A DNA stretch of 64,000 bases from Candidatus Aegiribacteria sp. Lineage in GTDB: Bacteria; Fermentibacterota; Fermentibacteria; Fermentibacterales; JCC-6. Every line of letters starts with the position of its first letter. Position 1 is the first letter of the stretch. A model generated the notes under the pieces. It saw nothing but the letters and a program-made list of their open reading frames with translations. It had not been told where the DNA came from and did no database searches. The DNA lies in contig JAUXIK010000004.1 of assembly GCA_030620995.1 (NCBI GenBank), positions 18,447 to 82,446 of the forward strand, given 5' to 3'. Position numbers and translations under genes: made by a program. This document shows positions 4,397 to 62,270 of this stretch, one piece after another.

Positions 4397-4420
4397 GCAG
4401 GAATACCTTTTAGTAAGATA

Positions 4421-21974: not shown

Positions 21975-23132
21975 TTAAAACAGTCTGGATGCAATATCCT
22001 CAACCCGATCGACCTTCTCCCATGAGAATGTTCCATCGTGTCCCGGTTCTCTCCCGAAATGTCCAAAAGACGAAGTCCTGCTGAAAACAGGCTTTTTCAG
22101 ACCAAGGTAGTCTATGATATCATATGGCTGCAGAGGGAAAATATCCTTTACCACAGTCTCCACCGCAGAGATATCGGAGACTTTTTCCGTTCCGAATGTC
22201 TCTATCATAACAGAGACCGGTTCTGCCTGGCCTATTGCGTAGGCAAGCTGTATCTCGCATCTTTCAGCAATCCCGGCTTCAACGAGGTTTTTGGCAATGT
22301 AACGTGCCATATATGCTGCGGAACGGTCAACCTTTGTGGAATCCTTGCCTGAAAAAGCTCCGCCTCCGTGACGTCCTGTGCCACCGTATGTATCGACAAT
22401 TATCTTCCTGCCGGTAAGGCCGGTATCACCATGGGGCCCGCCAATGGCAAATCTGCCGGAGGGATTGAAAAGGAGTTTACCTGTCCATTGAAGATGCGGT
22501 TTGCACAGAGTAAGAACAGGGGATACTACTTTATTGCGAATGTCTTCAATCATATCTTCGGTTCCCACGTCCGGAGCATGGTGTACCGAGAGTAGAATCT
22601 CATCGATGGATACAGGCTTGAAACCCTCATATTCAACGGTTACCTGGCTCTTGGCGTCAGGTCGCGCCCATGGCAGTTCTCCTGCCAGACGAACCTCCCT
22701 GAGTTTTTCAAGAAGCCTGTGAGCAAGCTGTATCGGGTATGGCATATGAGCTTCCGTCTCGCAGCATGCAAACCCGAACATCAATCCCTGATCTCCAGCT
22801 CCCTTATTGTCTACAACACCATGATCGATATCCGGAGACTGAGAATGTATCCTGATCCTGTATGTGTTTTCATTGAAATGAAAACCCAGATCAGGCTGAT
22901 CATAGCCAATAGACCTGATAGTATCTCTGGCGACTTTCTCATAGTCCACATTGGCATGGCTTTTCACTTCACCCGCCAGCAGGCAGAAATTAGTAGTTAC
23001 GAGAGTTTCACAGGCCACATGAGCATTTGGATCAACGGTAAGGTGAGCGTCAAGAACAGCGTCTGATATCTGGTCACAGATTTTGTCCGGATGACCTTCG
23101 GAAACGGATTCGCTGGTAAACAGTCTTCCCAT
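21975..23132 (-). CDS. metK: S-adenosylmethionine synthetase
   Basis: GHPDKICDQISDA and the GGGAFSGKD motif; full-length. Confidence 0.95.
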   Translation of the reverse strand: MGRLFTSESVSEGHPDKICDQISDAVLDAHLTVDPNAHVACETLVTTNFCLLAGEVKSHANVDYEKVARDTIRSIGYDQPDLGFHFNENTYRIRIHSQSPDIDHGVVDNKGAGDQGLMFGFACCETEAHMPYPIQLAHRLLEKLREVRLAGELPWARPDAKSQVTVEYEGFKPVSIDEILLSVHHAPDVGTEDMIEDIRNKVVSPVLTLCKPHLQWTGKLLFNPSGRFAIGGPHGDTGLTGRKIIVDTYGGTGRHGGGAFSGKDSTKVDRSAAYMARYIAKNLVEAGIAERCEIQLAYAIGQAEPVSVMIETFGTEKVSDISAVETVVKDIFPLQPYDIIDYLGLKKPVFSRTSSFGHFGREPGHDGTFSWEKVDRVEDIASRLF

Positions 23133-23162: not shown

Positions 23163-23280
23163 AAGAAAAAAAGCCGCCTGCCGGCGGCCTGAGGTTGCTA
23201 TCGGCTTTTTAGCACTTTTTTTTACGTGGTTGCAATAGACCTCAAATCATTCCACGAAGTTAAATGATACGAGTTATCCC
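23163..23280 (-). promoter_or_regulatory. Structured metK 5' leader: intrinsic terminator (GCCGCC-GGCA-GGCGGC + U7) 30 nt upstream of the start codon, preceded by a candidate SAM-II/V-like aptamer
   Basis: The terminator hairpin and U-run are read on the minus strand. The upstream segments UAUUGCAAC and GUGCUAAAAAGCC loosely resemble SAM-II conserved blocks; the class is not confirmed. Confidence 0.3.
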
Positions 23281-45297: not shown

Positions 45298-46923
45298 TTG
45301 AAAGGAGCAATTTTTGCTATGAAGAATTCGAGATGGATTATACCGCTGATCATGCTTACAGCAGTAATCCTTGCAACCTCTTGCGGAGATGATGAAACTC
45401 CGACCGGACCGGGCACATATCCTACAGCGTCAATCCTCAGCGCATCGACAGGAGCAAGTAATTCAGTATCCACTTCCTGGACCATGTGTCCTGATGATAA
45501 TTTTTCCGAATACAGCCTTTACAGGTCCCTGACTGAAGGGATTTCCGCCAATCCGCCGGACAGCCCTGTAAGAGCCGCCAGCAATGCGGCGGATACAACC
45601 TTTACAGATACAGGCCTGGAGTGGAGCACGGACTACTTTTACGCTGTCCGGACAAAGAATACCGACAATCTGTACTCCTGGAGTAACGAAGTATCAGTGA
45701 CCACTCCTGACTCCGGCAGTACCGGTGACTATCTGACCTGCTACCAGATCCAGGGACAGCAGTCATCCTCACCGTATGTTGACCAGATCGTTTCCGTAAC
45801 AGGAATTGTAACTACAGGCGGGGACGAACTCTACTATTCTGCGGGTCCTGTCGCGGTGCTGAGTGATCCTGATGGAGGTCCCTGGACGGGACTGGTTCTC
45901 TACGGTGACGATATCACTTCTCTTGCCAGGGGTGACAGTATACTTATCACCGGTACCGTTCAGGAGTACTACGGTCTGACTGAACTGGGTAACATTTCCT
46001 CTGTTGAGATTGTTTCTACCGGGAACGAGGTGCCACCAGCCACTGCGGTTTCCACTGGGGACATATCCAATTCTACTGATCCAGAGCAGTACGAATCCGT
46101 TCTTTGCACTATCAGCGATGCGATTGTAACCGAAGTCCAGGGATACGGCCAGTTCCTTGCCGATGACGGCTCAGGCGAATGCATTGTGGACGACATGGGC
46201 ACTTATTCGTACAGCCCTGCTGTTGGTGATACGATCATCACCGGAACCGGGATACTATGGTACTCCTGGGACGAATGGAAACTCGAACCCAGGGATGACA
46301 ACGATCTTATTACTTCCGGAGGCGGAGGCGGTGATACTTACACATGCTACGAGATCCAGGGACAGCAGTCGGAATCACCCTTTGATGGACAGACTGTCAG
46401 TGTCACCGGGATCATAACCGCTGACCCTGATGATTATACCGCTACATCTTCAACCTACTCCGCCATGGCAGATGCCGCCGGAGGACCCTGGAGCGGTCTG
46501 CTACTATATGGCGACGATCTCGAAGGGCTTCAGAGAGGTGACAGTGTAACGGTAACCGGAGTTGTGGATGAGTACTACGAAATGACTGAGGTTAAGTACC
46601 CGATATCCTACGTAGTACACTCGAGCGGACATGCTCTTCCGGATCCAATTCAGTTCTCTACCGGTGATCTCTCACCTTCTCTTGACCTTGAGCAATGGGA
46701 ATCCGTATTTGTGACCGTATCCGATGTCGATGTAACACAGATTGGTCTACCTTATTACACATGGGCTGTCGATGACGGAAGCGGAGAGTGCTACGCCGGC
46801 ACAATGGGTGACTTCACCTACGATCCGGCTGTAGGCGATAACCTGTCAAGCATGACAGGATTGCTCTGGTACTCCTACGATTTCAAGATTCAACCCAGGG
46901 ACGACAACGATATAGTCCAATAA
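45298..46923 (+). CDS. Lipoprotein with an FN3-like N-terminal region and two tandem domains of about 195 aa
   Basis: Lipobox (ILATSCG). The two internal repeats both begin D(Y/T)(L/Y)TCY(Q/E)IQGQQS and end KL/IEPRDDNDLI/IQPRDDNDIV. Confidence 0.5.
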   Translation: MKGAIFAMKNSRWIIPLIMLTAVILATSCGDDETPTGPGTYPTASILSASTGASNSVSTSWTMCPDDNFSEYSLYRSLTEGISANPPDSPVRAASNAADTTFTDTGLEWSTDYFYAVRTKNTDNLYSWSNEVSVTTPDSGSTGDYLTCYQIQGQQSSSPYVDQIVSVTGIVTTGGDELYYSAGPVAVLSDPDGGPWTGLVLYGDDITSLARGDSILITGTVQEYYGLTELGNISSVEIVSTGNEVPPATAVSTGDISNSTDPEQYESVLCTISDAIVTEVQGYGQFLADDGSGECIVDDMGTYSYSPAVGDTIITGTGILWYSWDEWKLEPRDDNDLITSGGGGGDTYTCYEIQGQQSESPFDGQTVSVTGIITADPDDYTATSSTYSAMADAAGGPWSGLLLYGDDLEGLQRGDSVTVTGVVDEYYEMTEVKYPISYVVHSSGHALPDPIQFSTGDLSPSLDLEQWESVFVTVSDVDVTQIGLPYYTWAVDDGSGECYAGTMGDFTYDPAVGDNLSSMTGLLWYSYDFKIQPRDDNDIVQ

Positions 46924-48079: not shown

Positions 48080-49552
48080 TTAATCGCCGCTTTCTTCGGA
48101 AATGCCCCAGCTGACCGTGTTTACACCTACCTGCAACAAGTATCTCAAATTGTCTTTTCTAACAGCCGGAGGGAGGAATTTCGCTCCAAACGGCGCCAGG
48201 CAGAGAAGTTCTGCGGGATTCGGAAGTTCATCAACCAAAAGGTCTATATGAGGTATTGGTACCGGATCAACCGGATATACAGCCATTCTCGACAGCAGCA
48301 GTTCTCTGAGCTTATCCCATGGAGTTCCCTCACAGCTGAATCCGGCTGCCATTTTGTGCCCTCCCGCGTTGGTGAACACATCTCCCATACTCATAAGAAA
48401 ACCAGCCATGTTCCAATCCCCGAATGAACGGGCTTCTCCAACGAGTTTTCCGCCCTCCCGCGGGGATACTATCAGTGTTCCTCTCCGGGTCACTCTGCTT
48501 AATTTGCTGGCGAGAACCCCCCCCATGCCATCAGGGATTGTATCCATGTATACAAGCGTCATTCCGTATGCGGACGCCTGGTCATCTCTGTTCTTGAGAG
48601 CCTGCGAGAATATGTCTGACAGCTGATACGCTCTGTACCGGCTTTCCTTTTTCATGAGTTTCCAGATAGACTTGCAGCTCCTGTAGTCTTCATCCATCAT
48701 GAAATCAAGCATGATCCCGATTCCTGAGCCCTTCCCTTTCCCGACAGTTGATGTGATCTCGTGCCGGATCATGGATCCCGTCCAGGCCGATTCTCTTGCG
48801 GGCCACCGTTCGGCAAGTATCTTCATGCCGCCTTTGAGCAGATCAATATCGATTTTTCCGAACTCCTCAAGGAGATACCTGTTCCAGCCCAGCAGAGGTA
48901 CTCGGTCCGAAACAGTTCCGAGAGCAACAGCTGTCAGAAGTTCAGGTTCGTTTTCCCACCCGGGGTAGATTGATATCAGGGCGGCGTACAGGACTCCGCA
49001 TCCGGCCAGATAAGTGGCGGGTGGGCCGGTTCTCTGTGGATTGATCATTCCATGGGCTTCAGGCAGAGGGGGGTTGAGCATGTGATGGTCGGTGATAACC
49101 ACCCTTGCGCCCTGATCCAGAGCCCAGCGGACTCCTGCTACAGAAGAACATCCGTAATCAACTGTAAGCAGCAGATCACCTGACAGAAGAGAGCCTTCCA
49201 TCAGCCTGGGAATAAGACCGTAATCATCTGTCGAACGTTCAGGCATGATTGGAATGACTTCAAAACCTTCTCCCTCAAGAATTCTGATTCCAACATAGAG
49301 CCCGGTAATGCCATCCATGTCATCGTGCCCATAGAGGACAATTTTGCCTCCACGATCTTTCAGATCATTGAGTTCACGGCGGAGAATATCAATATCGGGA
49401 ATACCGTCCGGCCATTCCGGCTTATCGGGCAGCCACTCTTTAATGGGATCGGGTAATTCGGGAAAGCGATGGAGAAGAATAGAATATGCCAGAGGCGTAA
49501 CCTTACACCTGCCCCGCTTCGTGTCGGGACCTTCTTCAATGGAACGCATCAA
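48080..49552 (-). CDS. DHH-family phosphoesterase (RecJ/NrnA-like; DHH + DHHA1)
   Basis: [11 protein letters not shown] and GGHKMAAG motifs. Confidence 0.7.
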
Positions 49553-49707: not shown

Positions 49708-51978
49708 CTATGAGCTATCCAGTACAGCGCGGAGAGTTCCGGCCAGATTTCGGATATCAATCGGTTTTCCAATTATGGTACTGACGTTCTTCTTAAGCAC
49801 ATTCTCAGAAATAGTATTCCCGTAACCTGTTAAAAGTACTATCGGGAACTCCGGATGGGTTTTTCTTATCTCCTCTGCCAGATCCAATCCTGTCATTTTC
49901 GGCATTGTCAGATCGGTAAGAATCAGGTCATATTTGTCAGGCTGCTTGCAAAATGCTTCCAGCGCATCGACACTGCTGCCTCTGGCGTCAACAGTATAAC
50001 CAAGCTGATTCAGAATTTTTCTTAACAGCTCCAGAACTGACGTCTCATCATCAATAAGCAGAATTGTTTCATGTCCTCTCGGAAATGAATCTATCTGTTT
50101 CCGTTGAGGTTTCGCAATCTCCTTTGTGACAGGAAGATATACATGAAAAGCAGCCCCTTTTCCCGGTTCGCTGGATACAGTTATCTCTCCGCCATTACTC
50201 TGGATAATGCCGTGTACTACTGAAAGCCCCAGACCGCTGCCTTTTTCAGACTTCTTTGTGGTGAAGAAAGGTTCGAAAATATGATCCTTTATTTCTTCAG
50301 TCATTCCCGGCCCAGTGTCACTCACAGTCAGCCGGACATATTCTCCCTCCTGAAGGATCGGGTGTGATCTCGAATCATCACCGTCATCGGAATGAAAAGC
50401 CTTCAATTCAAAAGTGATCTGTCCTCCTCCATCTGCCATTGCCTGATAAGCATTGGTACACAGATTAACAATGACCTCATGTATCTGTGATGAATCAGCC
50501 ATGACCATCGGGCAGTTCACATTTATTTCCTTCAGTATCTCAATCGTTGACGGAATGATTGGCCGCAGTAATTTCAGGGCTTCTTCCACTACCTGCTGCA
50601 GACGAATCGGTTTTTTCTCCATTTCCATCTGCTGGCTGAATGTCAGGATCTGCCTGACCAGATCCTTCGCGCGGTTGGCTCCGCTCAGAATCTCTTCCAG
50701 ATCCTCGGTGATAGGATCATGAGAGGACAATCTGGACAGCACCATATCGGTATAGCCGATAATGGGTGTAAGGATATTGTTGAAATCATGAGCAATACCA
50801 CCCGCAAGAATCCCAATTGTTTCCAGTTTCTCCGACCGGAACAGGCGCTTCTGCATTTCAGCTTTTTCCCGTTCCTCTTTTTTCAGTTCGGTAATGTCCC
50901 GATGGCTTGCTACGTGCGCAATCGTCTTCCCTTTATCATCCGTTACCCTGGAGGCGGAGACCAATACAGGGAAAAGCTCTCCGTTCTTTCTCCTGGCAAC
51001 CAGCTCTCCCGACCAGCTGCCTTCTATTGCCTTTTTCAGTGTCGGTTTCTGTTCATCAGGATAAATGGAAGATATCTCTTTTCCCATCAGCTCTTCCCTC
51101 GAATAGCCGAACATTCCGGCAAATGCTTTATTCACATATGTAATTCTCCCTTTGAGATCGCCCATGACAAGGCCGTCAGGCGAACTCTCGACCGACTGAG
51201 AGAACTGCTTCAATTCCCTCTTCGCTTTTTTCCGCTCGGTGATATCCCTTATCGTGGTAACCCTGAACGCCTGATCCTTCTTCTTTATATTTCTTGCCTC
51301 GATCTCTATCGGGAACAGCGTTCCATCCTTTTTTCTTCCCGATATTTCAAATGGTTCGGCAATATGCTCGACTATCCGTCTTTCTATCATTGAATGGTAT
51401 TCCGCGGGTACACACTGTTCAATTACGTTCCTCCCGATTATCTCTTCTCTTGAATAGTCGAACATTTTCAGAAGTGATTCATTTACATCAATTGCCACGC
51501 CTTTTTCATGAATCAGGATACCTTCAATAGTGAGATTCGAAAGATTTCTGTATCTCTCTTCGCTCGCTCTCAGTTTTTTCTCAGCCATCTTCTTCTCGGT
51601 AATGTCGTAAAATGCCATGGCAAATAATCCGCTGTCCGGTGAAAACACATTGAAGGAATGGTATCTGTCTGTCGGGGAAAAGTAAGATTCAAAGGATTCG
51701 GATTTTCCTGTTTCCGCTACTCTGGCGCAGACATCGAGGTATGGAGCTTCTTCGGCTCCATACAGTCCTGAAGCTTTTTCACCGATTACGCTTAAGCGTT
51801 TGATGCCAAATATCTTTTCATACTCCGGATTAACGTCGATTATTCGGTAGTCAACAGCTTTGCCCCTGTCATCGTATACGATTTCGTTCAGGCACACCGC
51901 TTCGCCAATCAATTCAAAGAAGGATTGGAAGCTCCACTGATCTTTACTTCGACCGGGCTTATCTTTGTCTATTATCAT
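49708..51978 (-). CDS. Hybrid sensor histidine kinase / response regulator with multiple PAS domains
   Basis: Repeated PAS blocks, a HisKA H-box (HDFNNILTPIIGY), a HATPase_c G-boxes and a C-terminal receiver domain (LLIDDE...DLTMP). Confidence 0.85.
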   Translation of the reverse strand: MIIDKDKPGRSKDQWSFQSFFELIGEAVCLNEIVYDDRGKAVDYRIIDVNPEYEKIFGIKRLSVIGEKASGLYGAEEAPYLDVCARVAETGKSESFESYFSPTDRYHSFNVFSPDSGLFAMAFYDITEKKMAEKKLRASEERYRNLSNLTIEGILIHEKGVAIDVNESLLKMFDYSREEIIGRNVIEQCVPAEYHSMIERRIVEHIAEPFEISGRKKDGTLFPIEIEARNIKKKDQAFRVTTIRDITERKKAKRELKQFSQSVESSPDGLVMGDLKGRITYVNKAFAGMFGYSREELMGKEISSIYPDEQKPTLKKAIEGSWSGELVARRKNGELFPVLVSASRVTDDKGKTIAHVASHRDITELKKEEREKAEMQKRLFRSEKLETIGILAGGIAHDFNNILTPIIGYTDMVLSRLSSHDPITEDLEEILSGANRAKDLVRQILTFSQQMEMEKKPIRLQQVVEEALKLLRPIIPSTIEILKEINVNCPMVMADSSQIHEVIVNLCTNAYQAMADGGGQITFELKAFHSDDGDDSRSHPILQEGEYVRLTVSDTGPGMTEEIKDHIFEPFFTTKKSEKGSGLGLSVVHGIIQSNGGEITVSSEPGKGAAFHVYLPVTKEIAKPQRKQIDSFPRGHETILLIDDETSVLELLRKILNQLGYTVDARGSSVDALEAFCKQPDKYDLILTDLTMPKMTGLDLAEEIRKTHPEFPIVLLTGYGNTISENVLKKNVSTIIGKPIDIRNLAGTLRAVLDSS

Positions 51979-52387
51979 AATGTGCCTTTAAACAATAGAT
52001 TCTCGGTCCTGGTGTAATTTTCATACAGTTCAACGATTCCTTCTTCAATTCGCGATTGTCAGATACCGGTAACAGCGCTGAACAAAACAGGGAGAATGCC
52101 GGGATGGTTTTACCCCTTCCCGAACATCCCCCCATGTAGAACAGTATCTGAAAATATTCCCGCAAATTACGTATACATCTAACTCTTATATATACATTAC
52201 ATATTTAATGTACGTGCAGTCAACCTTTGTCATTTTTATCTTTGCGGTTATCCTGAATTAATTTTAAACTGAAAGGATTTCTCCGGTTATCAAAAATCTT
52301 CTCATAAGTGAGGCAGATCATCAATTTTCAGGCTTGCCCGAACAGCCCGCACTTGAAACCTGTTGAATATATTCGTAAACTCAGTGT

Positions 52388-53476
52388 ATGAAGATTCAAT
52401 CATTACTTTGCAGATTCGTCACCCTGTTCCTTCTGCTGCTCTCCGCTTCCCCCGCTGAAACAGCCTTTGAACCCGTTTCGGAATCTCCCTGGCTTCAGGG
52501 CGGAATAGCCTCCAGTCTCTTCCCGACAACACCGCTGGTCATAATAGTTAACCCGGCCTGTCTCGGGCTTCTTGAAGGACACGGAGTCGCGGCTTCAGCA
52601 TCACGTCCCTTTGGATTGCACAGCCTTGACCGAACGGCAATAGCAGGAGACTGGATGTTCAGGAGATTCGCGGTGGGCGCTGCTCTCTCTCTGTCAGGCG
52701 ATGGAAGCTATACCGAGGAAACCGCTGTCGCCGCTGCTGCTTTTCGAATCATGAACGGCGTCGTTCTCGGAACGGATATCTCCATCAGAAATCTCCAGAT
52801 AAGCGGTTACGGCCGGGCAACAGGTGTCTCGGCGGACATCGGCGCGGTCTGGTCTCCCACTTCCGGTGTTTACTCTACAGCTCTTTTCCGCAGTGTCATT
52901 AGAAGCGATCTCGGTGATTCCGGCGATCCGTCTTCTCCCCGATCACTTGAGCTCGGTCTCGGCGTCGTCCCGGTAGACAGAGTATCCCTGGCCGTAGGAG
53001 CCGGCAGGCAGGAAGGTCTCGATACCGAATTCAGTTTTCATACCGCTTTTTCCCCACAATCCAGTATCAGCCTCGGGGCGGGAATGATTACGAACCCCGC
53101 AAGATTCTGGGCAGCTCTGTCCATTTCGGTATCCCCGATCAATGTGGAATACGGTTACGGAGAGCATTCAACTCTTCCTGGAACCCATTCAGTTGCCCTG
53201 TGCTGGGGGAACTGCGCATCCGATCCACCCGCGCTGAATCTTTCCGACAGCGAGGAAGAATCGGAGGCTTCCGCACCTGAATTCCCCCTGAATGTCAACA
53301 CGGCAACCGAGGAGGAATTTTTATTGATTCCGGGGATAGGACCAGGCCGAGCTTCAGCTATAGCCGCCTGGATGCGGCAGAACGGACCTGTCTCCTCAAT
53401 AGAAGAGCTTGATGATATTCCCGGCGTAGGTCCTTCACTTATGGAAGTGTTCAGAGAGTTTCTGGTGGCTGAATGA
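52388..53476 (+). CDS. ComEA-like helix-hairpin-helix DNA-binding domain fused to an N-terminal G/A/S-rich beta-barrel-like domain
   Basis: Signal peptide. The C-terminal about 70 aa (LNVNTATEEEFLLIPGIGPGRASAIAAWMRQNGPVSSIEELDDIPGVGPSLMEVF) form a ComEA-type HhH pair. The N-terminal about 250 aa resemble the 293-aa barrel protein at 57906. Confidence 0.6.
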   Translation: MKIQSLLCRFVTLFLLLLSASPAETAFEPVSESPWLQGGIASSLFPTTPLVIIVNPACLGLLEGHGVAASASRPFGLHSLDRTAIAGDWMFRRFAVGAALSLSGDGSYTEETAVAAAAFRIMNGVVLGTDISIRNLQISGYGRATGVSADIGAVWSPTSGVYSTALFRSVIRSDLGDSGDPSSPRSLELGLGVVPVDRVSLAVGAGRQEGLDTEFSFHTAFSPQSSISLGAGMITNPARFWAALSISVSPINVEYGYGEHSTLPGTHSVALCWGNCASDPPALNLSDSEEESEASAPEFPLNVNTATEEEFLLIPGIGPGRASAIAAWMRQNGPVSSIEELDDIPGVGPSLMEVFREFLVAE

Positions 53477-54975
53477 AAATACCTCCTGTACTTATTCTGC
53501 TCCTGTTTCTGTCCAGTATGGTTTCCGCTATCGAAGGAGATGTAAGGGTTCGGCTTCAACGAAGATTCCCGGCGTGCCGCGGTACTATCGAGAATTACTA
53601 CGCTGGTGACGAATTCGGTTTCTATGACAGGTTCAGGTTCCGCAGCGGCACGATGCGCTTTTCGCTTCTTCTGGACAAGGCCAGAGGCGAGGAATGGGTT
53701 GATATCATCTCCGGTGGTGTAATATGGACTCCTCCGAACGGTAACCTTCAGTCCGTCTCGGCGGGATGGCTCAAGGTCGATCTGGGAAGCGGGATGGTTA
53801 TTTCCTGCCCCGGCAGATGGTCCGACTTGAGTGAACTGGCTCTCTATAAACCTCCGGGCATCAGGAACCGTATAGAACCCGCCACATCCGCGTGGGGCTG
53901 CAGAGGAGACCCTCTGATCGGAGCCGGGGCATTAGCCCGGTTCGGAGACCTTGATGTGTCATTGCTGGCGGCTTATTCCCTATTGGACTCCATTGGTGAC
54001 GGACATCACAGAACCGCATCGGAAATCGCCGGAAAAGCCGCCATCCGGGAAACTCTCGGAGCCATCCGCGTTGGAGGGGAAGAATGGGGGGTTACACTTG
54101 CCGGAGCTATTGAGCATGACAGCGATGAACAGTACTGGGTCCGCATGGGAACCGACTGGGATCTTGATTTCAACACTTTCCGATTCACCGGAGAAACAGC
54201 CGCAGGAGTAGATTCCGGAGGAGTATCAGCAGCGTTCTGGGCAGCTCCCACACAGAATTTCGGTAACTTCAGGCACATGCTCATGCTGCTGCGGAACCCG
54301 TCGGATTTCCCGGATGCCAGAACATCACCCCCGATAGGCCGCGAATGTGATATCGGCTTCTGTTACGGGTTCAGGTGGAATGTTTTCTCAAGAACCGTTC
54401 TGAAAGCAGGCGCTGGAACATATTTCAATAACGATGAGCATCTGCTTCGCGGTTCGACCGAGATTCAATACAGATTCCCCTGGAACATGGAAGCGACAAT
54501 GGGCGGTCGAACACGAACAGAAACTGCTGAATCAGGGTGGAGAGTCTGGACAGGCAATAGCTGGCAGCCTCTCGAAAAATTCAATATCAGGACAAAACTC
54601 TCGTTCACCGGATGGAGTTCCGACGAGGATTCCACTGAAAACGGAACCGGCATTGAACTCAGGATCAGATACTTTCCTGTCAGCCTGTTATCAGTCGGTC
54701 TCGGCGGAGCCGCTTTTTCCACTGATGGATATAACTCCAGGGTGTACGCGGCAGAGGCCTTCTTCCCCGGTGAGTTCGGCTCCACTGCGCTATGGGACAG
54801 GGGCTTCATGTTCCATATGAGCATTTCCGCTGAAATCAGTGAAGATCTCTTCCTCAGAGCAAGGTTCCTGAGAAAGATCATTGAGGACGCGGCTGTTCTT
54901 GGCTCCGGCTGGGAAGAAACCGAAGGCGACTCCAGAACCGAATTTGGTTTTCAGCTTGACTGCTCGCTTCAGTAG
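53473..54975 (+). CDS. Secreted beta-rich protein (possible outer-membrane barrel), co-transcribed with the ComEA-domain gene
   Basis: Signal peptide, a 4-nt overlap with the upstream gene (ATGA), and amphipathic beta patterns. Confidence 0.4.
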   Translation: MKIPPVLILLLFLSSMVSAIEGDVRVRLQRRFPACRGTIENYYAGDEFGFYDRFRFRSGTMRFSLLLDKARGEEWVDIISGGVIWTPPNGNLQSVSAGWLKVDLGSGMVISCPGRWSDLSELALYKPPGIRNRIEPATSAWGCRGDPLIGAGALARFGDLDVSLLAAYSLLDSIGDGHHRTASEIAGKAAIRETLGAIRVGGEEWGVTLAGAIEHDSDEQYWVRMGTDWDLDFNTFRFTGETAAGVDSGGVSAAFWAAPTQNFGNFRHMLMLLRNPSDFPDARTSPPIGRECDIGFCYGFRWNVFSRTVLKAGAGTYFNNDEHLLRGSTEIQYRFPWNMEATMGGRTRTETAESGWRVWTGNSWQPLEKFNIRTKLSFTGWSSDEDSTENGTGIELRIRYFPVSLLSVGLGGAAFSTDGYNSRVYAAEAFFPGEFGSTALWDRGFMFHMSISAEISEDLFLRARFLRKIIEDAAVLGSGWEETEGDSRTEFGFQLDCSLQ

Positions 54976-55013
54976 TTCGCATATTTCAGCAACATTCTGA
55001 GAGGTGATAAACT

Positions 55014-55493
55014 TTGAGACCGTCCTGGGACGAATACTTTCTGAAACTCGCCATGCTTGCTTCCGAACGTGCCACATGTCCGAGAATGCACTGCGGCTGT
55101 GTGCTGGTGAAAGACAGGTATGTGCTTTCAACAGGGTACAACGGTTCTCTCCCCGGACTGGAGCACTGCGAGGATGTGGGATGTCTCATTGTCGATAACC
55201 ACTGCGTCAGAACAAATCATGCCGAGATGAACGCGATTGCCCAGGCTGCGAGGCACGGCGTTCCACTGAACGGCGCCACCGCTTACATAACGAACATGCC
55301 ATGCACCACCTGCGCGAAAGCCCTGCTCGCTGCCGGTATTTCACGTGTTGTTATCTTCTCCGACTACCACGGATCGCTTGCCGAGAAGTTCCTCGACGAA
55401 TCAGATGTTCCGATTGACCGGCTGCCGATGCCCGAACTGGAAATTAACTACGATCTCGAAGGATACTCCTCCGCGAAAAAGTTCGAAAGCTGA
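55014..55493 (+). CDS. comEB: dCMP deaminase (ComEB-type cytidine/deoxycytidylate deaminase)
   Basis: HAEMNAI and PCTTCA zinc-binding motifs; 159 aa. Confidence 0.85.
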   Translation: MRPSWDEYFLKLAMLASERATCPRMHCGCVLVKDRYVLSTGYNGSLPGLEHCEDVGCLIVDNHCVRTNHAEMNAIAQAARHGVPLNGATAYITNMPCTTCAKALLAAGISRVVIFSDYHGSLAEKFLDESDVPIDRLPMPELEINYDLEGYSSAKKFES

Positions 55494-55754
55494 CCGTTCG
55501 GATTCGGTCGTCTCCGGACTGTCTTGGACCAGTTACAGTTATCACTGGATACTGTTGCGCCAGACAATCAATATAAGGCTGAATATCTCTAATAATCATG
55601 ATGTTCTCCTGTAAGTTTCAAAGTTGTACTTTGAATGTGTATACAATTGCTTGCATTCTTCGTTGTCAATTGCTGGAAATCCGTTATTGATTTCTTAAAA
55701 GTCAATTCTCTGTATACATGTTTGCCTATTTTCGTAACTGTACTGAAATGCAAT

Positions 55755-55960
55755 TTTCTTACAGTATAGAATAAGATATTCAGAAATTTGGATTATCTTA
55801 CAGTATGGAATAAGTTTGCACCCAGAATAATCGAAGCATTAACCGAATCTTGTATTGTATCAGCCAATCCCTGATTCTTGTTGACATGACATTTCTTACA
55901 GTATAGAATAAGATATTCAAAAGGTGGTGATATTCTTGCATTATAGAAGAAGTTTGTATC
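55755..55960. repeat. Tandem duplication (about 138 bp) of the promoter and 5' end of the DUF4143 ATPase gene; 27-bp repeat copies at 55755, 55794, 55893 and 55933
   Basis: R1 and R3 are identical (TTCTTACAGTATAGAATAAGATATTCA), and R2 and R4 are related. A sigma70-like TTGACA (55881-55886), then 15-16 nt, then TATAGAAT lies in the downstream unit. Confidence 0.55.
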
Positions 55961-57129
55961 TCGACAGAATCAGACCATTTATCGGATCTCCTGTTGTGAA
56001 AGTCATAACAGGTATGCGCCGGGTTGGGAAAAGCGTCTTCCTGGGTCAGGTTGTCGATCTGGTGCGATTGATCTCTCCGGGAACGAAAATTCTGTCAGTC
56101 AATATGGAACTGATGGAAAATTGGCAATACCGGGATGGCATTCTTCTTCACGGAATGATTACTGATCAGGGAACCGATATGGCTTTGTTCCTTGATGAGG
56201 TACAGGACATTAGAGGTTGGGAGGAGATCGTCTCTTCTCTTCTCGCCAGAGGCGGAGTTGATCTCTACATTACAGGATCAAATGCACAGATGCTTTCATC
56301 GGAGCTGGCAACGAAAATTGCGGGAAGATATGTGGAATTCCAGATATATCCGCTTGGTCTCTCGGAGTTCATTAAATTCCGTGGGGATGAAGCCGTCTCA
56401 CTGGAAGAGGAATTCCGTTTATACCTTAGATTTGGCGGGATGCCGGCTCTTCATTCGATGGAGCTTTCATGGGAAGTTGCATACCAGTACCTTCAATCTG
56501 TCAGAGATACCGTTCTCCTGAACGATGTAATCACTCGAAACAGCATCAGAAATATTCCGCTTCTCGAATCAGTATTTACCTTTCTTGCTGACAACATAGG
56601 TTCTCTTTTCTCTGCAAAACGTATTGCAGATTATCTTGGATCGCTGGGCAGGAGTACATCAGTTAACACTGTCATCGACTTCATTCATTATCTGTCTGAT
56701 GCCTTCGCTTTTCATTACGTAAGAAGATATGATCTCAGGGGTAAGAAACAGCTTGAATACACCGGCAAAGCGTTTTTAAATGACCTTGCCTTCCGGCATG
56801 CACTTTTCGGTTACAGGGAAGGTGATATTTCCGGTTTCCTCGAGAATATCATCTACATGGAACTGAGGCGAAGAGGTTATTCCATTTTCATTGGCTGGCT
56901 GGACGGAAAAGAGATTGACTTCATAGCCCACAGGGGAGATGAGACTATTTACATTCAGGTTGCGTATCTTCTTGCATCTGAGGAGACGATCGAAAGGGAA
57001 TTTCTCCCCCTCATGAACACTCAGGATAATTGCCCCAAGATGGTGCTTTCCATGGACAGAGACTTTCCATCAAGGAAAGGCATCCCTCAGATATATATAC
57101 CGGAGTTCCTCACAGGCGCTCAATCCTGA
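55924..57129 (+). CDS. AAA+ ATPase of the AAA_14 + DUF4143 family
   Basis: Walker A-like GMRRVGKS, Walker B LFLDEVQ, and a C-terminal DUF4143-like region; GTG start after AAAGG. Confidence 0.7.
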   Translation: MVIFLHYRRSLYLDRIRPFIGSPVVKVITGMRRVGKSVFLGQVVDLVRLISPGTKILSVNMELMENWQYRDGILLHGMITDQGTDMALFLDEVQDIRGWEEIVSSLLARGGVDLYITGSNAQMLSSELATKIAGRYVEFQIYPLGLSEFIKFRGDEAVSLEEEFRLYLRFGGMPALHSMELSWEVAYQYLQSVRDTVLLNDVITRNSIRNIPLLESVFTFLADNIGSLFSAKRIADYLGSLGRSTSVNTVIDFIHYLSDAFAFHYVRRYDLRGKKQLEYTGKAFLNDLAFRHALFGYREGDISGFLENIIYMELRRRGYSIFIGWLDGKEIDFIAHRGDETIYIQVAYLLASEETIEREFLPLMNTQDNCPKMVLSMDRDFPSRKGIPQIYIPEFLTGAQS

Positions 57130-57152
57130 ACCCGCAAGGTGAGATTTGCGGG

Positions 57153-57560
57153 TTATAGTTCAAATAGAATTTTCAGCGAACGGTTTATTCTCTGTACTTC
57201 GTCAGGTGACAGTTTCCCGCGGATTCTGATCATTCTGTGACTATGATCGATTGGACGCGTCTGCAGGCAGTCCGCTATGGATTTCTTCGAAAGGCCATTA
57301 TCAGGTGAAGGAAGAATTTCAACATTAGTCATTATCCGTGCTTTTTTTGCGCTCCATTCAGTAACTGGAACAACCTGAATAACCGGAACTCTTTCATTGT
57401 AAACATCATTCGTTACAATTACACACGGTCTGATTTTCCCCATCTCCGGACATTTATCCGGGAACCGCAAATGTAGTGACAAGCTGTTTTCTGAACCAAG
57501 AGTCGGATCAAGATTTACATCAATCACCATACCTCTTTTCAACACAGTCATTCCGGCCAT
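57153..57560 (-). CDS. Type II toxin, PemK/MazF-family endoribonuclease
   Basis: KRGMVIDVNLDPTLGSE...IRPCVIVT matches the MazF/PemK fold; overlaps the upstream small gene by 13 nt. Confidence 0.7.
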   Translation of the reverse strand: MAGMTVLKRGMVIDVNLDPTLGSENSLSLHLRFPDKCPEMGKIRPCVIVTNDVYNERVPVIQVVPVTEWSAKKARIMTNVEILPSPDNGLSKKSIADCLQTRPIDHSHRMIRIRGKLSPDEVQRINRSLKILFEL

Positions 57561-57781
57561 CCGGCTACTGTTGATTCAGTCAATTCTTTCAGATCATCAT
57601 CCAGTGAATAAATTTCAGAATACAGATCAGCTGATCTTCTCAGGCTTTCAAGTTCCATAGCTTTCTTTAACAGGTTAATAGCCTCTCTGACTACAGAGCT
57701 TTTATCCTTGAATCCATACACTTCGAATTCACTAAGGAATTGAGCCTGTGCTTCTTCAATACTGAATTTTGCCTGCAACAT
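57548..57781 (-). CDS. Cognate antitoxin (77 aa)
   Basis: Small ORF overlapping the toxin start; a helical, acidic C-terminus. Confidence 0.5.
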   Translation of the reverse strand: MLQAKFSIEEAQAQFLSEFEVYGFKDKSSVVREAINLLKKAMELESLRRSADLYSEIYSLDDDLKELTESTVAGWPE

Positions 57782-57905
57782 ACAGAAACCTTTCTGTCCC
57801 TACTTCTAGCCCCCAATTTACGACCCTATAATAAGTACTATGATATTCAAAGTCAATATGAACCCGGAATAACCCGCCTGCATGTGCAGTTTTACGTTCT
57901 ATCGA

Positions 57906-58787
57906 TTAAAAAGAAACAGATAGACCGGCCAGAACAGGCCAGCTCAGCTCGTCCCTCTGAGATATGGCGGCTTCGATTGTATATGAACCACCCGACTCAT
58001 AGGTATACCGCAGGCCCGCGAAGAACCCGCTTATCTCATCCTCACCGGGTGAATATTGATAACCCGCCGAACATCCATACTCAGAGTAATTAATGCTCAT
58101 TCCGCATCCAAATGCGTCGGAAGTTGAGAATCCTATCTTCCCGCCGGCAAAACCGGTCATAATCGATGATATGCGATAGCTCGCTCCTGCGGATATTTCG
58201 GTTGGCATATCCTTACGAATGCCCTGCCATGAAGGAGCCTGCCCGACACCTGTAATAACGATACCGGCAAGAAGCCCACCGTCAGGTTTAAAAGCCAGCC
58301 CCGCATTAGCGTTAATACCGGTTCCTCCCTCAGCCGCCACATTCTCCCATGACAGACCTGCTGAAACACCCGCATCAATCCAACCCGCAAGCGGGAAGGA
58401 CACTCCGGCCATTGCGCAGCCTGTTGAATAGGAATACTCGCCGGTAACAGCACCGGACTCATCTCTTCCGATGAGCCCTCCTCTGCCCAGATAAACAAGA
58501 CCGGTTCCGACTTCAATGTCAGATCCGGCAGAGAAAGCACCTGCGATTGATACGGCTGTAGTTTCCAGGTTCCATCGGCCTCCTGCCGCGCTGAACCCGG
58601 TTTTGCAAAGAGCCGGATTCGACAGCATGGATCCCGGACCTGTACTGATCGCACAGCCGGCGGGTCCGAGCATCATCGTCGATGGAAATCCTGGAGATGA
58701 CAGAACCAGAAGATCAGCTGTCCCCGTTTCGCCTGCGATAGCAAGAGAAGCCGCTATCAGCGGGATACAGCAAAGTATTCGGTACAT
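57906..58787 (-). CDS. Gly/Ala/Ser-rich outer-membrane beta-barrel-like protein
   Basis: Signal peptide, an NPA motif near the N-terminus, alternating beta patterns and a C-terminal aromatic residue (SVSF). Confidence 0.4.
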   Translation of the reverse strand: MYRILCCIPLIAASLAIAGETGTADLLVLSSPGFPSTMMLGPAGCAISTGPGSMLSNPALCKTGFSAAGGRWNLETTAVSIAGAFSAGSDIEVGTGLVYLGRGGLIGRDESGAVTGEYSYSTGCAMAGVSFPLAGWIDAGVSAGLSWENVAAEGGTGINANAGLAFKPDGGLLAGIVITGVGQAPSWQGIRKDMPTEISAGASYRISSIMTGFAGGKIGFSTSDAFGCGMSINYSEYGCSAGYQYSPGEDEISGFFAGLRYTYESGGSYTIEAAISQRDELSWPVLAGLSVSF

Positions 58788-59917
58788 GTCTCACCTCCCG
58801 AAGTTCTGAAGACAACAGCGTAAAGACCCGGAGAGGCCATTCCGTCAACGGTCGAAAGATTCCAGGTATAAGAACCGGACTCAGCATTTACATCAAGGAT
58901 CTTCTCTCCATTAAGATTGAAAACCATTATCGATGAGGACTGCCCATCAGTTGCGTCCCACGCGAAAGTAACCACTGAGGTGGCGGGGCTTGGATACACG
59001 GCGAATTCATCAATGGAAGCAGGACCTCCTCCACCCGTGGGCGGCATGGAGTCGTAATAAACTCCCTGTCCATCCGAGGATATATAGAACGTACCGTCAA
59101 GATCGGTTCTGTAGATGGTTATATCTCTGTCGTTCAATCTGTTAATAACTTCCGCGTGAGGATGACCGTAAGGATTTCCAGCACCGACGCAGATGGCGGC
59201 AATCGAAGGATTGATCTCAACCAGCCATTGCGTGCAGGTGGATGTATATGATCCGTGATGCCCCACCTTCAGCACATCTGCTGATATTTCATCAATTTCT
59301 CCTGTTGAGAGCGCTCCAAGAACAACGTCCTCTCCGCCGTCCGTCTCGAGATCACCGGTAAAAATGAATGAAACTTCATCGTATGTAAGCCGGATAACAA
59401 TGGAAGAGTTGTTTATGTTGGATGGAGACAGGGGATCGACAGGATGAATCACCTCAACCGTCAGTTCAGGCCCCCAGTTCAGAATATCTCCTCTCCGGGG
59501 AGTTACGAATTCAGAACCGTTGTTCATAATTGCCTCAAGATAGGTTTCGTATGTCCAGGTGCCTCCATAGGGCCAGCCCGAATCGTATGCTGTCACTACC
59601 GGAAGTGTGTTATAGACGGATATCAATCCGCCGACATGATCGGCATGGAGGTGAGTGCCTACAACTCCTTCCAGGTATGTAACCCCAAGGCTGTCCAGAA
59701 GAGGAAGTACTCTGTCTTCTCCGCAGTCCCACACAGGAGGATAGGTGCTCATATCACCCCCGTCTATCACATAATGCCTGCCGCCGGGTGTGCAGACAAT
59801 CATGGCGTCGCCGGAATAATCTTCGAATGTGGTGTCTATGAAAAATACTACAAGAGGGTCAGCCGCGAAAACGCAGTGAACCAGAAGAATAATCAACAGA
59901 ACAAAAACTGTTTTCAA
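58757..59917 (-). CDS. Secreted MBL-fold metallo-hydrolase (ComEC/Rec2-type beta-lactamase-like domain) with a T9SS C-terminal sorting domain
   Basis: HLHADHVGG, a later GHHGS motif, and a T9SS C-terminal domain (FAVYPSPATSVVTF...GLYAVVF). Confidence 0.65.
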   Translation of the reverse strand: MKTVFVLLIILLVHCVFAADPLVVFFIDTTFEDYSGDAMIVCTPGGRHYVIDGGDMSTYPPVWDCGEDRVLPLLDSLGVTYLEGVVGTHLHADHVGGLISVYNTLPVVTAYDSGWPYGGTWTYETYLEAIMNNGSEFVTPRRGDILNWGPELTVEVIHPVDPLSPSNINNSSIVIRLTYDEVSFIFTGDLETDGGEDVVLGALSTGEIDEISADVLKVGHHGSYTSTCTQWLVEINPSIAAICVGAGNPYGHPHAEVINRLNDRDITIYRTDLDGTFYISSDGQGVYYDSMPPTGGGGPASIDEFAVYPSPATSVVTFAWDATDGQSSSIMVFNLNGEKILDVNAESGSYTWNLSTVDGMASPGLYAVVFRTSGGETCTEYFAVSR

Positions 59918-59932
59918 GCGGACTATTTCAGC

Positions 59933-60538
59933 CTACTGAACGAAGGCTTTTATGAATGCCCAGCTGTTCTGCACGAAAGAATTCTCAAAAACACTGTTCA
60001 GTGAGCCTGGTGTGCCGAAATCACCATTCCCGAAAGTCATCGTGGATTTACCCCATGTTGAAGATGTGCTGGAGATCCATCCCGGGTTGATTCGCTCGCA
60101 GGAGTAACCCGCTGTTACAGGCCAGCTGCCGGTGTAGATTATTTCGTCAATAATTTCCCTTGAAGAGCTGCGCAGTGTCAGCCTGCCCGTATCGTTGATT
60201 GTGAAATCGCTGTATACATAGTCCGGAACAAGACCGCCGTTCATGGATTCATCTCCGCATGAGCAAAGGACGTAGTAACTATCCGGCGGCAGCAGATAAG
60301 TGGACATCGTTACTTCCTGCCCGAGAGCGTTTGACAGAGTCCATCCGGAAAGGTTGACCCAGTCTCCCGATCTGTTGTACAGTTCAACCCATTCGCCGTC
60401 TGTTTCCGTATAGGAAGCGAGGGGATGTGCCATGAATTCATTAATAACAACGACACCGCTGGACAGTGTTCCTCCGCCACTGCTACCGGGCACAAACGGT
60501 GTAATCTGAGCAATCAACAGAATAGAAAGCAATATCAT
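59933..60538 (-). CDS. Lamin-tail-domain (LTD) secreted protein
   Basis: VVINEFMAHP...EWVELYN matches the LTD signature. Confidence 0.6.
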   Translation of the reverse strand: MILLSILLIAQITPFVPGSSGGGTLSSGVVVINEFMAHPLASYTETDGEWVELYNRSGDWVNLSGWTLSNALGQEVTMSTYLLPPDSYYVLCSCGDESMNGGLVPDYVYSDFTINDTGRLTLRSSSREIIDEIIYTGSWPVTAGYSCERINPGWISSTSSTWGKSTMTFGNGDFGTPGSLNSVFENSFVQNSWAFIKAFVQ

Positions 60539-60648
60539 AGGCTACCTCCTTTGAAGCACGCCATTCCACGGCACGCTTCATCATATTTCATAGGAGTTTG
60601 AAACCCTTTTGTCAACTCGTACATCCCGGCCGTTATAATCAAGAAATA

Positions 60649-62013
60649 TTATTTACTCTTCTTTTCTTCGGGTTGCTCCAGGTTGAAGTCTATGCCGAAT
60701 TGTTTGATTGAACATTCGGGGCAGATCCCGTGAGTGAACTGTGCGTCGGAGTGTTCGGAGATATAGAACTCTATCTGCTTCCAGTAACCGTCATCATCCC
60801 TGACTTTCTTACAGCTCGCGCAGATGGGAAGCAGGCCCTGGAGTTTCTTCACATGCGCCAGGGCATCACGAAGCTGATCGTTTTTCCTGGAAAGCTCCAG
60901 GTTCTTCAGGCGGCAGATCTCGGCTTCCTTCTCCTTCTTCTCGGTCTCGAACTGCACCTGAAGCCCCGCTACCTTATCCATGCTCTTCTCGTTCAGATAC
61001 TCTTCCAGGCATATTTTCAGTTCCCGGAAGTACACCACCACCTGCTGCAGATCCCCTTTTGCCTCGTACAGATCCGTTATGTTCTCCAGACAGAGGATTT
61101 CACAGTCCTTTATCTTAAGCTTTCTTGTTATCGAAAGGCCTCTGCTGATAAGCTCTTCAGCTTCATCGAGACGTCCAAGGATGATATGTAACCCGCCTAA
61201 ACAATTGCATGTGTAAGCAATTCCTCTTTTGTTGCCGATCTCCTCAAACTGTTCAAGGCTCCTTGTGAAGAAGTCCAGAGCCGATATGTTATCGCCTAGG
61301 TTTTGCTGCAGACTCCCAAGGTTGCACAGAGTACTCGCGATACCTTTTTTATCCCCCAGGTCTTCCCTTATATCAAGAGCTTTCTGGAAGTACTCCTGTG
61401 CTTTGTCCAGCTCTTCCTTTTTTCCGTATACAGAACCCATGTTGTTGTAGATGTATGCCAGTTTCGCGCGGTTCCCGGACTCCTCCCATATCTTCCGTGA
61501 ATATTCATAGGATGACTGCGCCAGATCAAGGCGAAGCAGACTGCTGTAGCATGCGCCTATATTCAGGTAGCAAAGGGCAAGTTCATCTTTACCTGCGCCA
61601 CATTCCTGTTTCCGTCTGAGAGATTCGTGGTAGTGTTCAAGAGCCTTGTCAATCATACCCTGAGACCTGTAGCTGGAGGCCATGATGCCGTGAACGGATG
61701 CCATGCCGTTCTTATCTTCGAGTTTCTCAGAGATCTCCATGGATTTCCGGCAATACGACATTGCCTCAGCGAAGTTCCCCGCCTCCTGATTGACCGTTCC
61801 AAGCATATTGCAGCTCCTGGCCTGCTCGACAGGAAACCCCAGTTCTCCAGCCAGATCATGTGCTTCCAGAGCATAAGCTTCCGATTTGCGGGGATCTGAA
61901 TGAATCTCACTAAGAGCAATTTTGTTCAGCAGGGATACAAGTTCCGAACCGGGAGGTTCAAGTCTGAGTTTTTCGAGTTCCTTCTCCAGCGCTATGATTT
62001 CCTCATTCGGCAT
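60649..62013 (-). CDS. TPR-repeat protein with a coiled coil and a C-terminal Cys4 module (CASCKKVRDDDGYW...HGICPEC)
   Basis: Multiple TPR-like repeats, then ICASCKK...FTHGICPECS. Confidence 0.55.
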   Translation of the reverse strand: MPNEEIIALEKELEKLRLEPPGSELVSLLNKIALSEIHSDPRKSEAYALEAHDLAGELGFPVEQARSCNMLGTVNQEAGNFAEAMSYCRKSMEISEKLEDKNGMASVHGIMASSYRSQGMIDKALEHYHESLRRKQECGAGKDELALCYLNIGACYSSLLRLDLAQSSYEYSRKIWEESGNRAKLAYIYNNMGSVYGKKEELDKAQEYFQKALDIREDLGDKKGIASTLCNLGSLQQNLGDNISALDFFTRSLEQFEEIGNKRGIAYTCNCLGGLHIILGRLDEAEELISRGLSITRKLKIKDCEILCLENITDLYEAKGDLQQVVVYFRELKICLEEYLNEKSMDKVAGLQVQFETEKKEKEAEICRLKNLELSRKNDQLRDALAHVKKLQGLLPICASCKKVRDDDGYWKQIEFYISEHSDAQFTHGICPECSIKQFGIDFNLEQPEEKKSK

Positions 62014-62270
62014 GCAGCGTACTCCAGACTAAACCCCTTTCAAAAAGAATATTAATTTCTATATTCTTTCACTCATTAGCATAATATTCATTCATGTGAC
62101 TGGTGTCAATAAACTGAAGCAGCAAGATTGGCGTTGCATGTCCCCACACATATTTACATCAAACGATTCAGAAAGAATAATAAGTAAATCAGAAAGCATT
62201 CAAAGGGCTAGTAAGTACTTGATAATATACCTTAATCTGTTATGATATAACATTATGGAAGGGGTATACA

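Follow-up and report, generated by a model that had tools for sequence, protein, structure and literature searches.

In the well-studied Gram-negative bacteria, DNA is taken up through the PilQ secretin, together with a retracting type IV pilus and with free ComEA as a ratchet. The free ComEA of Vibrio is a periplasmic Brownian ratchet for long double-stranded DNA. Here we describe a gene cluster of Candidatus Aegiribacteria sp. (Fermentibacterota), in which a ComEA-type helix-hairpin-helix (HhH) domain is predicted to be fused to an outer-membrane beta-barrel (gene A), next to the gene of a larger predicted barrel (gene B). The cluster lies on contig JAUXIK010000004.1 of assembly GCA_030620995.1, in a stretch of 64,000 nucleotides (nt) from position 18,447 to 82,446 of the forward strand, which we call the window and whose numbering is used throughout. 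With its neighbours, namely a ComEB-like deaminase (C), a second barrel-like protein (F), an exported hydrolase (G), a lamin-tail-domain protein (H), an oligonucleotide-binding-fold protein (O) and a RecJ-like protein (R), the cluster looks like an undescribed apparatus for extracellular DNA capture and uptake.

Parts of this cluster have counterparts in described systems. A PorV-like 14-strand barrel is partnered with a larger barrel both in SprA-PorV, the type 9 translocon, and in BamA-BamG, the barrel assembly machinery (BAM) of Bacteroidota. The ExeM/NucH nucleases of Shewanella and Vibrio combine a lamin-tail domain (LTD), oligonucleotide-binding (OB) folds and a nuclease. Among the haloarchaea, lipoproteins that join an LTD with a metallo-beta-lactamase (MBL) fold (“ComA”, Hlac_1867) or with a thermonuclease (Hvo_1477) have been tied to extracellular DNA (PMC5118699). 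The pilus-independent transformation of Riemerella anatipestifer needs a DUF5689 surface protein, an outer-membrane barrel and the HhH protein RA0C_RS02645, which resemble no classical competence components (PMC8459023). The ComEC proteins of Bacteroidetes mostly lack a Lactamase_B domain (PMC6299819). The searchable literature holds no description of a PorV-like barrel-ComEA fusion, of its large partner or of this gene arrangement, and the preliminary description had not recognized the arrangement as a known system either. No paper found in the literature search combined Fermentibacteria with competence, and none connected PorV with ComEA in a way that bears on the fusion.

A predicted barrel pair with a tethered ComEA-type domain

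The region 52388-60538 is made up of two convergent operons, A-B-C on the forward and H-G-F on the reverse strand, the latter with H as its first gene. The open reading frames (ORFs) were all found at the positions that had been stated (Table 1).

The C-terminal domain of protein A matches HHH_3 (PF12836) with 42.5 bits, against a Pfam cutoff of 27, and stays below the NCBIfam cutoffs for ComEA (TIGR01259, 46.9 vs 152.35 bits; TIGR00426, 40.2 vs 53.1 bits). Its best matches are to ComEA models and ComEA structures. It superposes on the ComEA structures 8dss and 2duy, with 35% identity to 2duy, and has a conserved basic residue in the hairpin (motif [IV]PGIGP[SAG][KR]AS). An AlphaFold2 model built with 51 homologues (pLDDT, the predicted local distance difference test, 89.5) opens with a signal peptide and a short N-terminal hatch, continues into 14 beta strands and ends, past an acidic linker, in the HhH domain. 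The closest structural matches are PorV and BamG, while none of the PorV/PorQ-family NCBIfam models (NF033709, NF033710, NF033711) was matched at E<=0.01. Based on this model, we consider A with high confidence to be a 14-strand outer-membrane barrel of the PorV/FadL type with a C-terminal ComEA-type HhH domain, and the preliminary description was right to propose a fusion of this kind.

In FadL and PorV, both termini of the 14-strand barrel are periplasmic. As this applies to even-stranded barrels of the FadL/PorV type, the ComEA domain of A is likely tethered beneath the outer membrane. DNA binding at the outer membrane, as proposed in the preliminary description, would therefore be retained, yet on the periplasmic face and not at the cell surface. 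The domain of A resembles the free ComEA of Vibrio, Neisseria, Thermus and Bacillus in its HHH_3 score above the Pfam cutoff, its predicted ComEA fold, its extracytoplasmic location and its vicinity to a ComEB-like gene. However, it is covalently joined to a 14-strand barrel, whereas ComEA itself is soluble or anchored in the inner membrane. In addition, A is devoid of the oligomerisation domain of Gram-positive ComEA.

Genes A and B share 4 nt (ATGA). Protein B, in which many Arg and Lys residues are invariant, had been noted as a secreted beta-rich protein co-transcribed with A. Its model is a barrel of about 24 strands. The overlaps between A and B and, on the other strand, between G and F (31 nt) indicate translational coupling.

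Exported and cytoplasmic neighbours of the barrel pair

Protein G was recognized in the preliminary description as a free-standing MBL-fold hydrolase with a sorting domain of the type IX secretion system (T9SS), and both parts are borne out. Its MBL domain aligns with solved ComEC structures (E 9e-41 with 30bt_A, residues 524-799; E 1e-40 with 9ic4_A), including the HLHADH and HHGS motifs, and the next unrelated MBL structure follows only at E 5e-4. The metal-binding motifs HLHADH and KVGHHGS are intact. The match to the ComEC/Rec2 model TIGR00361 is restricted to the MBL part (model positions 451-663; 116.7 vs 190 bits), and neither the Competence channel nor DUF4131 was found with Pfam. G aligns with ComEC over its own whole MBL domain and keeps the metal motifs. 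It differs from ComEC in having no channel and no DUF4131/OB domain, and in being a separate protein with a signal peptide and a T9SS C-terminal sorting domain (CTD), outside the cytoplasmic membrane. The CTD scores above the TIGR04183 cutoff (26.1 vs 23) and marginally under that of PF18962 (26.3 vs 27). Sub-threshold matches of G to Avs1a and 6A-MBL, which could point to a defence system, were set aside, since those to ComEC are much stronger and G is an exported protein.

A second protein of the window, 942 residues long, has a clear T9SS CTD (Por_Secre_tail, 33.1 bits) and FlgD_ig, with no Pfam match besides these two. Its presence indicates that the organism uses T9SS-type sorting.

Protein F is likely a distant paralogue of the A barrel, as judged from profile comparisons. 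Its family (A3) aligned with the A-barrel family (A1) in hhalign (probability 88%, E 3e-6), with cross-matches to A barrels in jackhmmer, and the NCBIfam matches to PorQ (E 2e-8, 33.8 vs 220 bits) and PorV_fam (E 3e-5, 23.7 vs 90 bits) are weak. The relation is seen only profile to profile; A and F are not significantly similar in BLASTP, and the F-family profile retrieved nothing from all PDB sequences, even at E<=10. This agrees with the barrel-like protein proposed earlier on the opposite strand. By analogy, F is a candidate surface anchor for G.

The LTD of H (PF00932, residues 26-135) is clearly above the cutoff (49.6 vs 34.3 bits), as had been expected. Directly upstream of H, on the same strand, lies a gene for a tetratricopeptide-repeat (TPR) protein with a Cys-rich tail (CASCKKVRDDDGYWKQIEFYISEHSDAQFTHGICPEC); in the related locus L005 its position is taken by a 267-residue protein with no recorded Pfam family.

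Protein C was correctly named a dCMP deaminase of the ComEB kind (dCMP_cyt_deam_1, 90 bits vs cutoff 25; ComEB TIGR02571, E 8e-44, 149.2 bits and thus under the equivalog cutoff of 219.45), and its translation contains the zinc motifs HAE and PCxxC. R matches the recJ model TIGR00644 with E 2e-50 (171 bits vs cutoff 397). The signal peptide of O is lipobox-like, its translation has an internal repeat, and the Pfam domains found were tRNA_anti-like, fn3 and tRNA_anti-codon. A match of O to ExeM_NucH_DNase (NF033681; E 6e-18, 65 bits vs 300) covers only positions 37-123 of the 546 in the model, and Pfam and NCBIfam scans detected no endonuclease/exonuclease/phosphatase (EEP) or other nuclease domain. 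We regard O as a candidate surface DNA-binding protein.

Table 1. Features of the window discussed in the text, with positions in nt.
Feature	Position	Strand	Assignment and remarks
A	52388-53476	+	Signal peptide, predicted 14-strand PorV/FadL-type barrel, acidic linker, ComEA-type HhH domain
A, barrel	52466-53209	+	Approximately residues 27-274
A, HhH domain	53288-53464	+	HHH_3 match, residues 301-359
B	53473-54975	+	Signal peptide, predicted outer-membrane beta-barrel of about 24 strands
C	55014-55493	+	ComEB-like dCMP deaminase, cytoplasmic; starts 39 nt past B
F	57906-58787	-	Secreted beta-rich PorV/PorQ-like protein; shares 31 nt at its start with the end of G
G	58757-59917	-	Signal peptide, ComEC-type MBL nuclease domain (approximately residues 30-294), T9SS type-A CTD (approximately 307-386)
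H	59933-60538	-	Small secreted LTD protein
R	48080-49552	-	RecJ-like phosphoesterase (Pfam DHH, DHHA1), no signal peptide, cytoplasmic
O	45298-46923	+	Predicted lipoprotein, fn3 and two repeated ExeM/NucH-type OB-fold modules
PAS histidine kinase/response regulator	49708-51978		Between R and A
AAA_14/DUF4143 ATPase	55924-57129	+	Pfam match; part of the 2.4-kb insertion
MazF/PemK toxin	57153-57560	-	Internal insertion relative to the Pfam model; part of the 2.4-kb insertion
Antitoxin-like ORF	57548-57781	-	77 residues, overlaps the start of the MazF/PemK toxin; part of the 2.4-kb insertion
TPR-repeat protein	60649-62013	-	Cys-rich tail
T9SS-CTD protein	23512-26340	-	942 residues; Por_Secre_tail, FlgD_ig
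SAM-II (long-loop) riboswitch	23199-23261	-	48 bits, gathering score 44
S-adenosylmethionine synthetase	21975-23132	-	Directly downstream of the riboswitch
IS200-like Y1 transposase	12452-13309	-	Y1_Tnp, E 2e-12
600-residue ORF	3236-5038	-	No family match; probably not a real gene

Conservation within Fermentibacteria

Genomes and metagenomes of Candidatus Aegiribacteria/Fermentibacteria are the source of the close homologues of A, B and F, and a word-indexed search suggested that each of the three families is confined to Fermentibacteria. The A family comprises 71 clusters with 40-93% identity, from Fermentibacteria wherever a source is named. We gathered 68 loci, about 57 of them related, and mapped their genes by iterative profile searches. 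These loci are not independent of one another. Linkage counts for H, O, F and G refer to the 20 loci with at least 7 kb on both sides.

Three configurations were found (arrowheads give the direction of transcription). The first is that of the window, R< A> B> C> F< G< H<. The second, without F and G, is R< X< A> B> C> H<, and the third is X> H> G> F> O> R< A> B> ... C<, with O directly between F and R. Gene X codes for a secreted, Gly-rich protein of about 305-325 residues (for example L006, 8947-9924, reverse strand; L013, 5500-6447, forward strand), with 36 ORF matches over the loci. It occupies the gap between R and A in the second configuration and lies directly upstream of H in the third, travelling with the cluster. 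It has no Pfam or NCBIfam match, no BLASTP similarity to F and no detected homologue in the window.

In every locus that extends past A, B starts at or before the end of A. R is found within 3 kb upstream of A in 34/35 loci, divergent from A in most relatives and either adjoining it or separated from it only by gene X. C lies within 7 kb of A in 25/26 loci. H is within 9 kb of A in all 20 loci, in three different positions, and O in 16 of the 20. The H-G-F block has switched sides of R-A-B and yet remained close, and H still adjoins A-B-C where G and F are gone. The linkage expected in relatives from the preliminary description was recovered for A-B, the comEB-like gene and the LTD gene; the MBL-T9SS gene G and its barrel F lie within 9 kb of A in only 7/20 loci. 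We place the barrel pair A-B, along with H, R and C, at the core of the cluster and see G-F as a frequent but dispensable companion.

In the window, a segment of 2.4 kb with an ATPase and a toxin/antitoxin-like gene pair separates the two operons. It is absent from loci L002, L003 and L005, and in the first two of these, where protein A is 88-89% identical to that of the window, C and F are only 66-102 bp apart. Since close relatives do without the segment, we consider it an insertion outside the system. The gene set reported earlier within about 8 kb is present as stated, although split by this insertion, and R and O lie upstream, outside 52388-60538.

The barrel pair in distant lineages

A full HMMER scan with the barrel of A alone (residues 1-285) against 1.84 billion representatives retrieved 668 relatives, mostly stand-alone barrels of about 274 residues with sub-threshold matches to PorV/PorQ families. 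Distant A-like relatives reach 30-74 bits, against a PorV_fam cutoff of 90. In all 12 distant relatives of at least 340 residues that were examined, the C-terminal part contains a ComEA-type HHH_3 domain, and in some of them two. Barrels without such a fusion are scattered among these proteins. L075, with the A-like fusion that diverges most, encodes it at a contig end.

B-like partners lie downstream of the A-like genes in these distant loci (E 4e-30 to 1e-14 with the A2 profile). L070 and L071 encode, after the A-like protein, a 646-664 residue B-like protein (E 1e-14, 4e-30) with its own N-terminal HHH_3 domain, and then a DUF6913 protein. In L072/L073, a non-fused A-like barrel, an inserted PDDEXK gene and a B-like protein with a weak N-terminal HhH follow one another. 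L074 has an A-like protein with two HhH domains and then a B-like protein. All pairs examined thus have at least one ComEA-type HhH domain, C-terminal on A, N-terminal on B or on both partners, and in each case on an end expected to face the periplasm. This retention on one partner or the other argues for the domain being an integral part of the module, and the two-barrel pair is itself a conserved module.

Locus L069, in which the A barrel shows only 28% identity along the aligned part, contains a tightly packed operon for a 559-residue B-like protein (L069_559), a ComEC-like MBL lipoprotein (TIGR00361, E 8e-23), a 1445-residue multi-LTD protein and an A-like barrel-ComEA protein, with a divergent OB-fold protein gene upstream. 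L069_559 has a degenerate N-terminal HhH domain and was recognized as B-like by jackhmmer in a small custom database; its BLASTP similarity to the B-like protein of L070 reaches E 0.009 only, and we call it B-like tentatively. That these parts recur together independently in L069 is the strongest evidence for a joint function of the genes. Linkage of the genes exceeds chance, as follows from the three gene orders within the phylum together with this independent operon of a distant lineage.

In three to four loci, the A-like/B-like pair has a DUF4835 gene next to it, in divergent orientation (L070, 9068-9943; L071, 8890-9798; L072, 7048-7884; all on the reverse strand). Only the copy of L070 was scanned, and it is PorD-like (NF052317, E 5e-24, sub-threshold), a hint that the barrel pair may be connected with the T9SS. 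Elsewhere, the pair lies beside recR with no nuclease nearby. The pair is thus specific neither to Fermentibacteria nor to the nuclease genes with which the preliminary description had grouped it, as it also occurs in other lineages beside a PorD-like gene or recR without a nuclease. On three other points the preliminary description had been open to challenge, and each was decided in its favour: the HhH domain is ComEA-like, the MBL protein falls specifically with the nuclease domains of ComEC, and linkage of the genes persists among relatives.

Comparison with described DNA uptake systems

As in the comE operon of Bacillus, a ComEA-type protein is followed by a ComEB-type one, and a ComEC-derived domain is encoded nearby. 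The classical order of ComEA, dCMP deaminase and full-length ComEC was seen in the metagenomic loci L056-L059, which were fetched through the HhH domain, and in the cluster only B separates A from C. The differences are that B intervenes, and that the ComEC-related G is a nuclease domain only, on the opposite strand and absent in most relatives. Three genes in one transcription unit with a channel-forming ComEC, the hallmark of a comE operon, were not found. A derivation of the locus from a comE operon is plausible, and the “re-wired comE operon” of the preliminary description is no more than an evolutionary guess: the order of A and C speaks for it, and the lack of a ComEC channel, ComF and DprA in the window speaks against it. 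As a separate observation, the loci L056-L059, L063 and L064, from other bacteria, carry either ComEA, dCMP deaminase and full-length ComEC or ComEA followed by ComEC, and lend themselves to comparison when the origin of the ComEA/ComEB adjacency is traced.

With ExeM/NucH and the haloarchaeal MBL-LTD proteins, the cluster shares the exported modules, that is LTD, OB fold and nuclease. In contrast to ExeM/NucH and the haloarchaeal LTD nucleases, these modules are split here over H, O and G and linked to a barrel pair, and G has a ComEC-type MBL and not the EEP or thermonuclease fold of ExeM/NucH and Hvo_1477. The likeness to Riemerella anatipestifer, also of the FCB (Fibrobacterota-Chlorobiota-Bacteroidota) group, is one of concept only: a surface protein, an outer-membrane barrel and an HhH protein. 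The Riemerella barrel has a CarboxypepD_reg domain, which was not seen in B, and a faint DUF5689 match on the OB-fold neighbour in L069 is the only hint of a link.

A possible passage for DNA and its alternatives

From the domain identities, predicted folds, gene overlaps and conserved linkage, all of them computed, we hold with moderate confidence that A-B-C, H-G-F, O and R code for an envelope apparatus for the handling of extracellular DNA. In such an apparatus, O and H would bind DNA outside the cell through their OB folds and LTD, respectively. G, exported by the T9SS, could cut or process DNA at the surface, where the F barrel would probably hold it via the CTD, as PorQ holds PorZ. The large barrel B would be the outer-membrane passage for DNA. 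Since PorV-type barrels partner with larger barrels, A probably docks on B, as PorV does on SprA and BamG on BamA, and its ComEA domain would be held just under the membrane. There, it may bind incoming double-stranded DNA in the periplasm and block its backsliding, and so act as a Brownian ratchet. RecJ-like R may degrade DNA that reaches the cytoplasm, and ComEB-like C would convert dCMP. With R and C as constant neighbours, the imported DNA may serve at least partly for nucleotide salvage; recombination would also be possible. We put forward only tentatively the narrower proposal that the pair is an outer-membrane DNA translocon free of secretin and pilus, with an approximately 24-strand B gated or partnered by a PorV-like A with a built-in ComEA ratchet, and that Fermentibacteria and other T9SS-bearing FCB lineages use it for uptake.

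Several observations weigh against an uptake apparatus. The 64-kb window contains no ComEC channel, ComF, DprA or pilus gene, and one would expect transforming DNA to be broken down by a nuclease at the surface. B of this genome has no family match and no HhH domain, and hhalign gave a probability of only 1% between the B family and L069_559. DNA binding, the nuclease activity of G, the complex of A with B and the passage of DNA through B are all inferred from sequence. Others among these observations bear on a different explanation, which we regard as somewhat unlikely: that A-B is an accessory complex of the T9SS or of outer-membrane biogenesis, with the HhH domain used for protein contacts or in another role than uptake, that H-G-F is an unrelated scavenging set, and that the proximity of the genes is inherited synteny. 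ComEB and RecJ count as housekeeping enzymes, and inherited synteny may account for the linkage of C and R. The best structural matches of A, PorV and BamG, and the sub-threshold PorV_fam matches of its relatives agree with this explanation. In L070-L073, a PorD-like T9SS gene lies next to the pair, divergent from it, with no nuclease, LTD or deaminase gene nearby, which would suit a role in secretion or in the envelope just as well. Weak HHH_3 matches include GspK and PsbU, so that an HHH_3-like domain does not always bind DNA, and G and F are missing near A in 13/20 loci. The flanks (UvrA, GGDEF, aminoacyl-tRNA synthetase, DUF5343, epimerase) are also syntenic in part of Fermentibacteria, which makes linkage within the phylum weak evidence by itself. 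A role in secretion is less easily reconciled with the HhH domain of A being closest to ComEA models and structures, with its retention on either partner in every pair examined, with the joint transcription unit of A-like, B-like, ComEC-like MBL and LTD genes in L069, and with a linkage of H that persisted through three rearrangements.

DNA may also simply be food. G, with H and O, would then degrade it to oligonucleotides and nucleotides, which would diffuse through B, the ComEA domain of A would only concentrate the substrate, and R and C would complete the salvage, without transformation. This would fit an extracytoplasmic G with a T9SS CTD, and R and C are among the most constant neighbours of A. 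LTD nucleases allow haloarchaea to grow on extracellular DNA or to metabolise it (PMC5118699), and Fermentibacteria are described as fermenters of organic-rich anoxic habitats (PMC5030696, PMC10116835). However, nucleotides would not need a ratchet for long double-stranded DNA, the cluster contains no nucleotidase, phosphatase or nucleoside transporter, and G is missing in most loci while A-B-H persists. We therefore consider pure DNA scavenging quite unlikely, even though it overlaps with uptake by the proposed apparatus and differs from it only in the size and fate of the transported DNA. Export or anchoring of DNA, for example as part of a biofilm matrix, appears very improbable to us. In principle, barrels with periplasmic DNA-binding domains could pass DNA outward, and LTD and OB-fold proteins could tether it at the surface; against this, no coupling ATPase, relaxase or other cytoplasmic or inner-membrane export component is encoded nearby, and, to our knowledge, ComEA- and ComEC-type domains are associated with import in all characterised systems.

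Other features of the window

Apart from the cluster, the window contains housekeeping genes and the additional T9SS-CTD protein described above. The number of sigma-70 promoters and terminators predicted in 51900-62200 was near the expectation from shuffled sequence. A SAM-II (S-adenosylmethionine) riboswitch was detected directly upstream of the S-adenosylmethionine synthetase gene, and an IS200-like transposase gene was also present. A long ORF that overlaps aminotransferase and aldolase genes on the opposite strand is probably not a real gene.

Implications for Fermentibacteria

A conserved barrel pair with a ComEA-type domain, found repeatedly near genes for a ComEC-type nuclease, LTD and OB-fold proteins, is a testable candidate for a route across the outer membrane. 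If true, it would provide the missing outer-membrane step of pilus-independent DNA uptake in the FCB part of the bacterial tree. A PorV-type barrel would then be put to a new use, and G would be a new example of a ComEC nuclease domain that acts as an exported protein of its own. Should the function be nutritional instead, the cluster would mark DNA scavenging by abundant uncultured fermenters of sediments and digesters.

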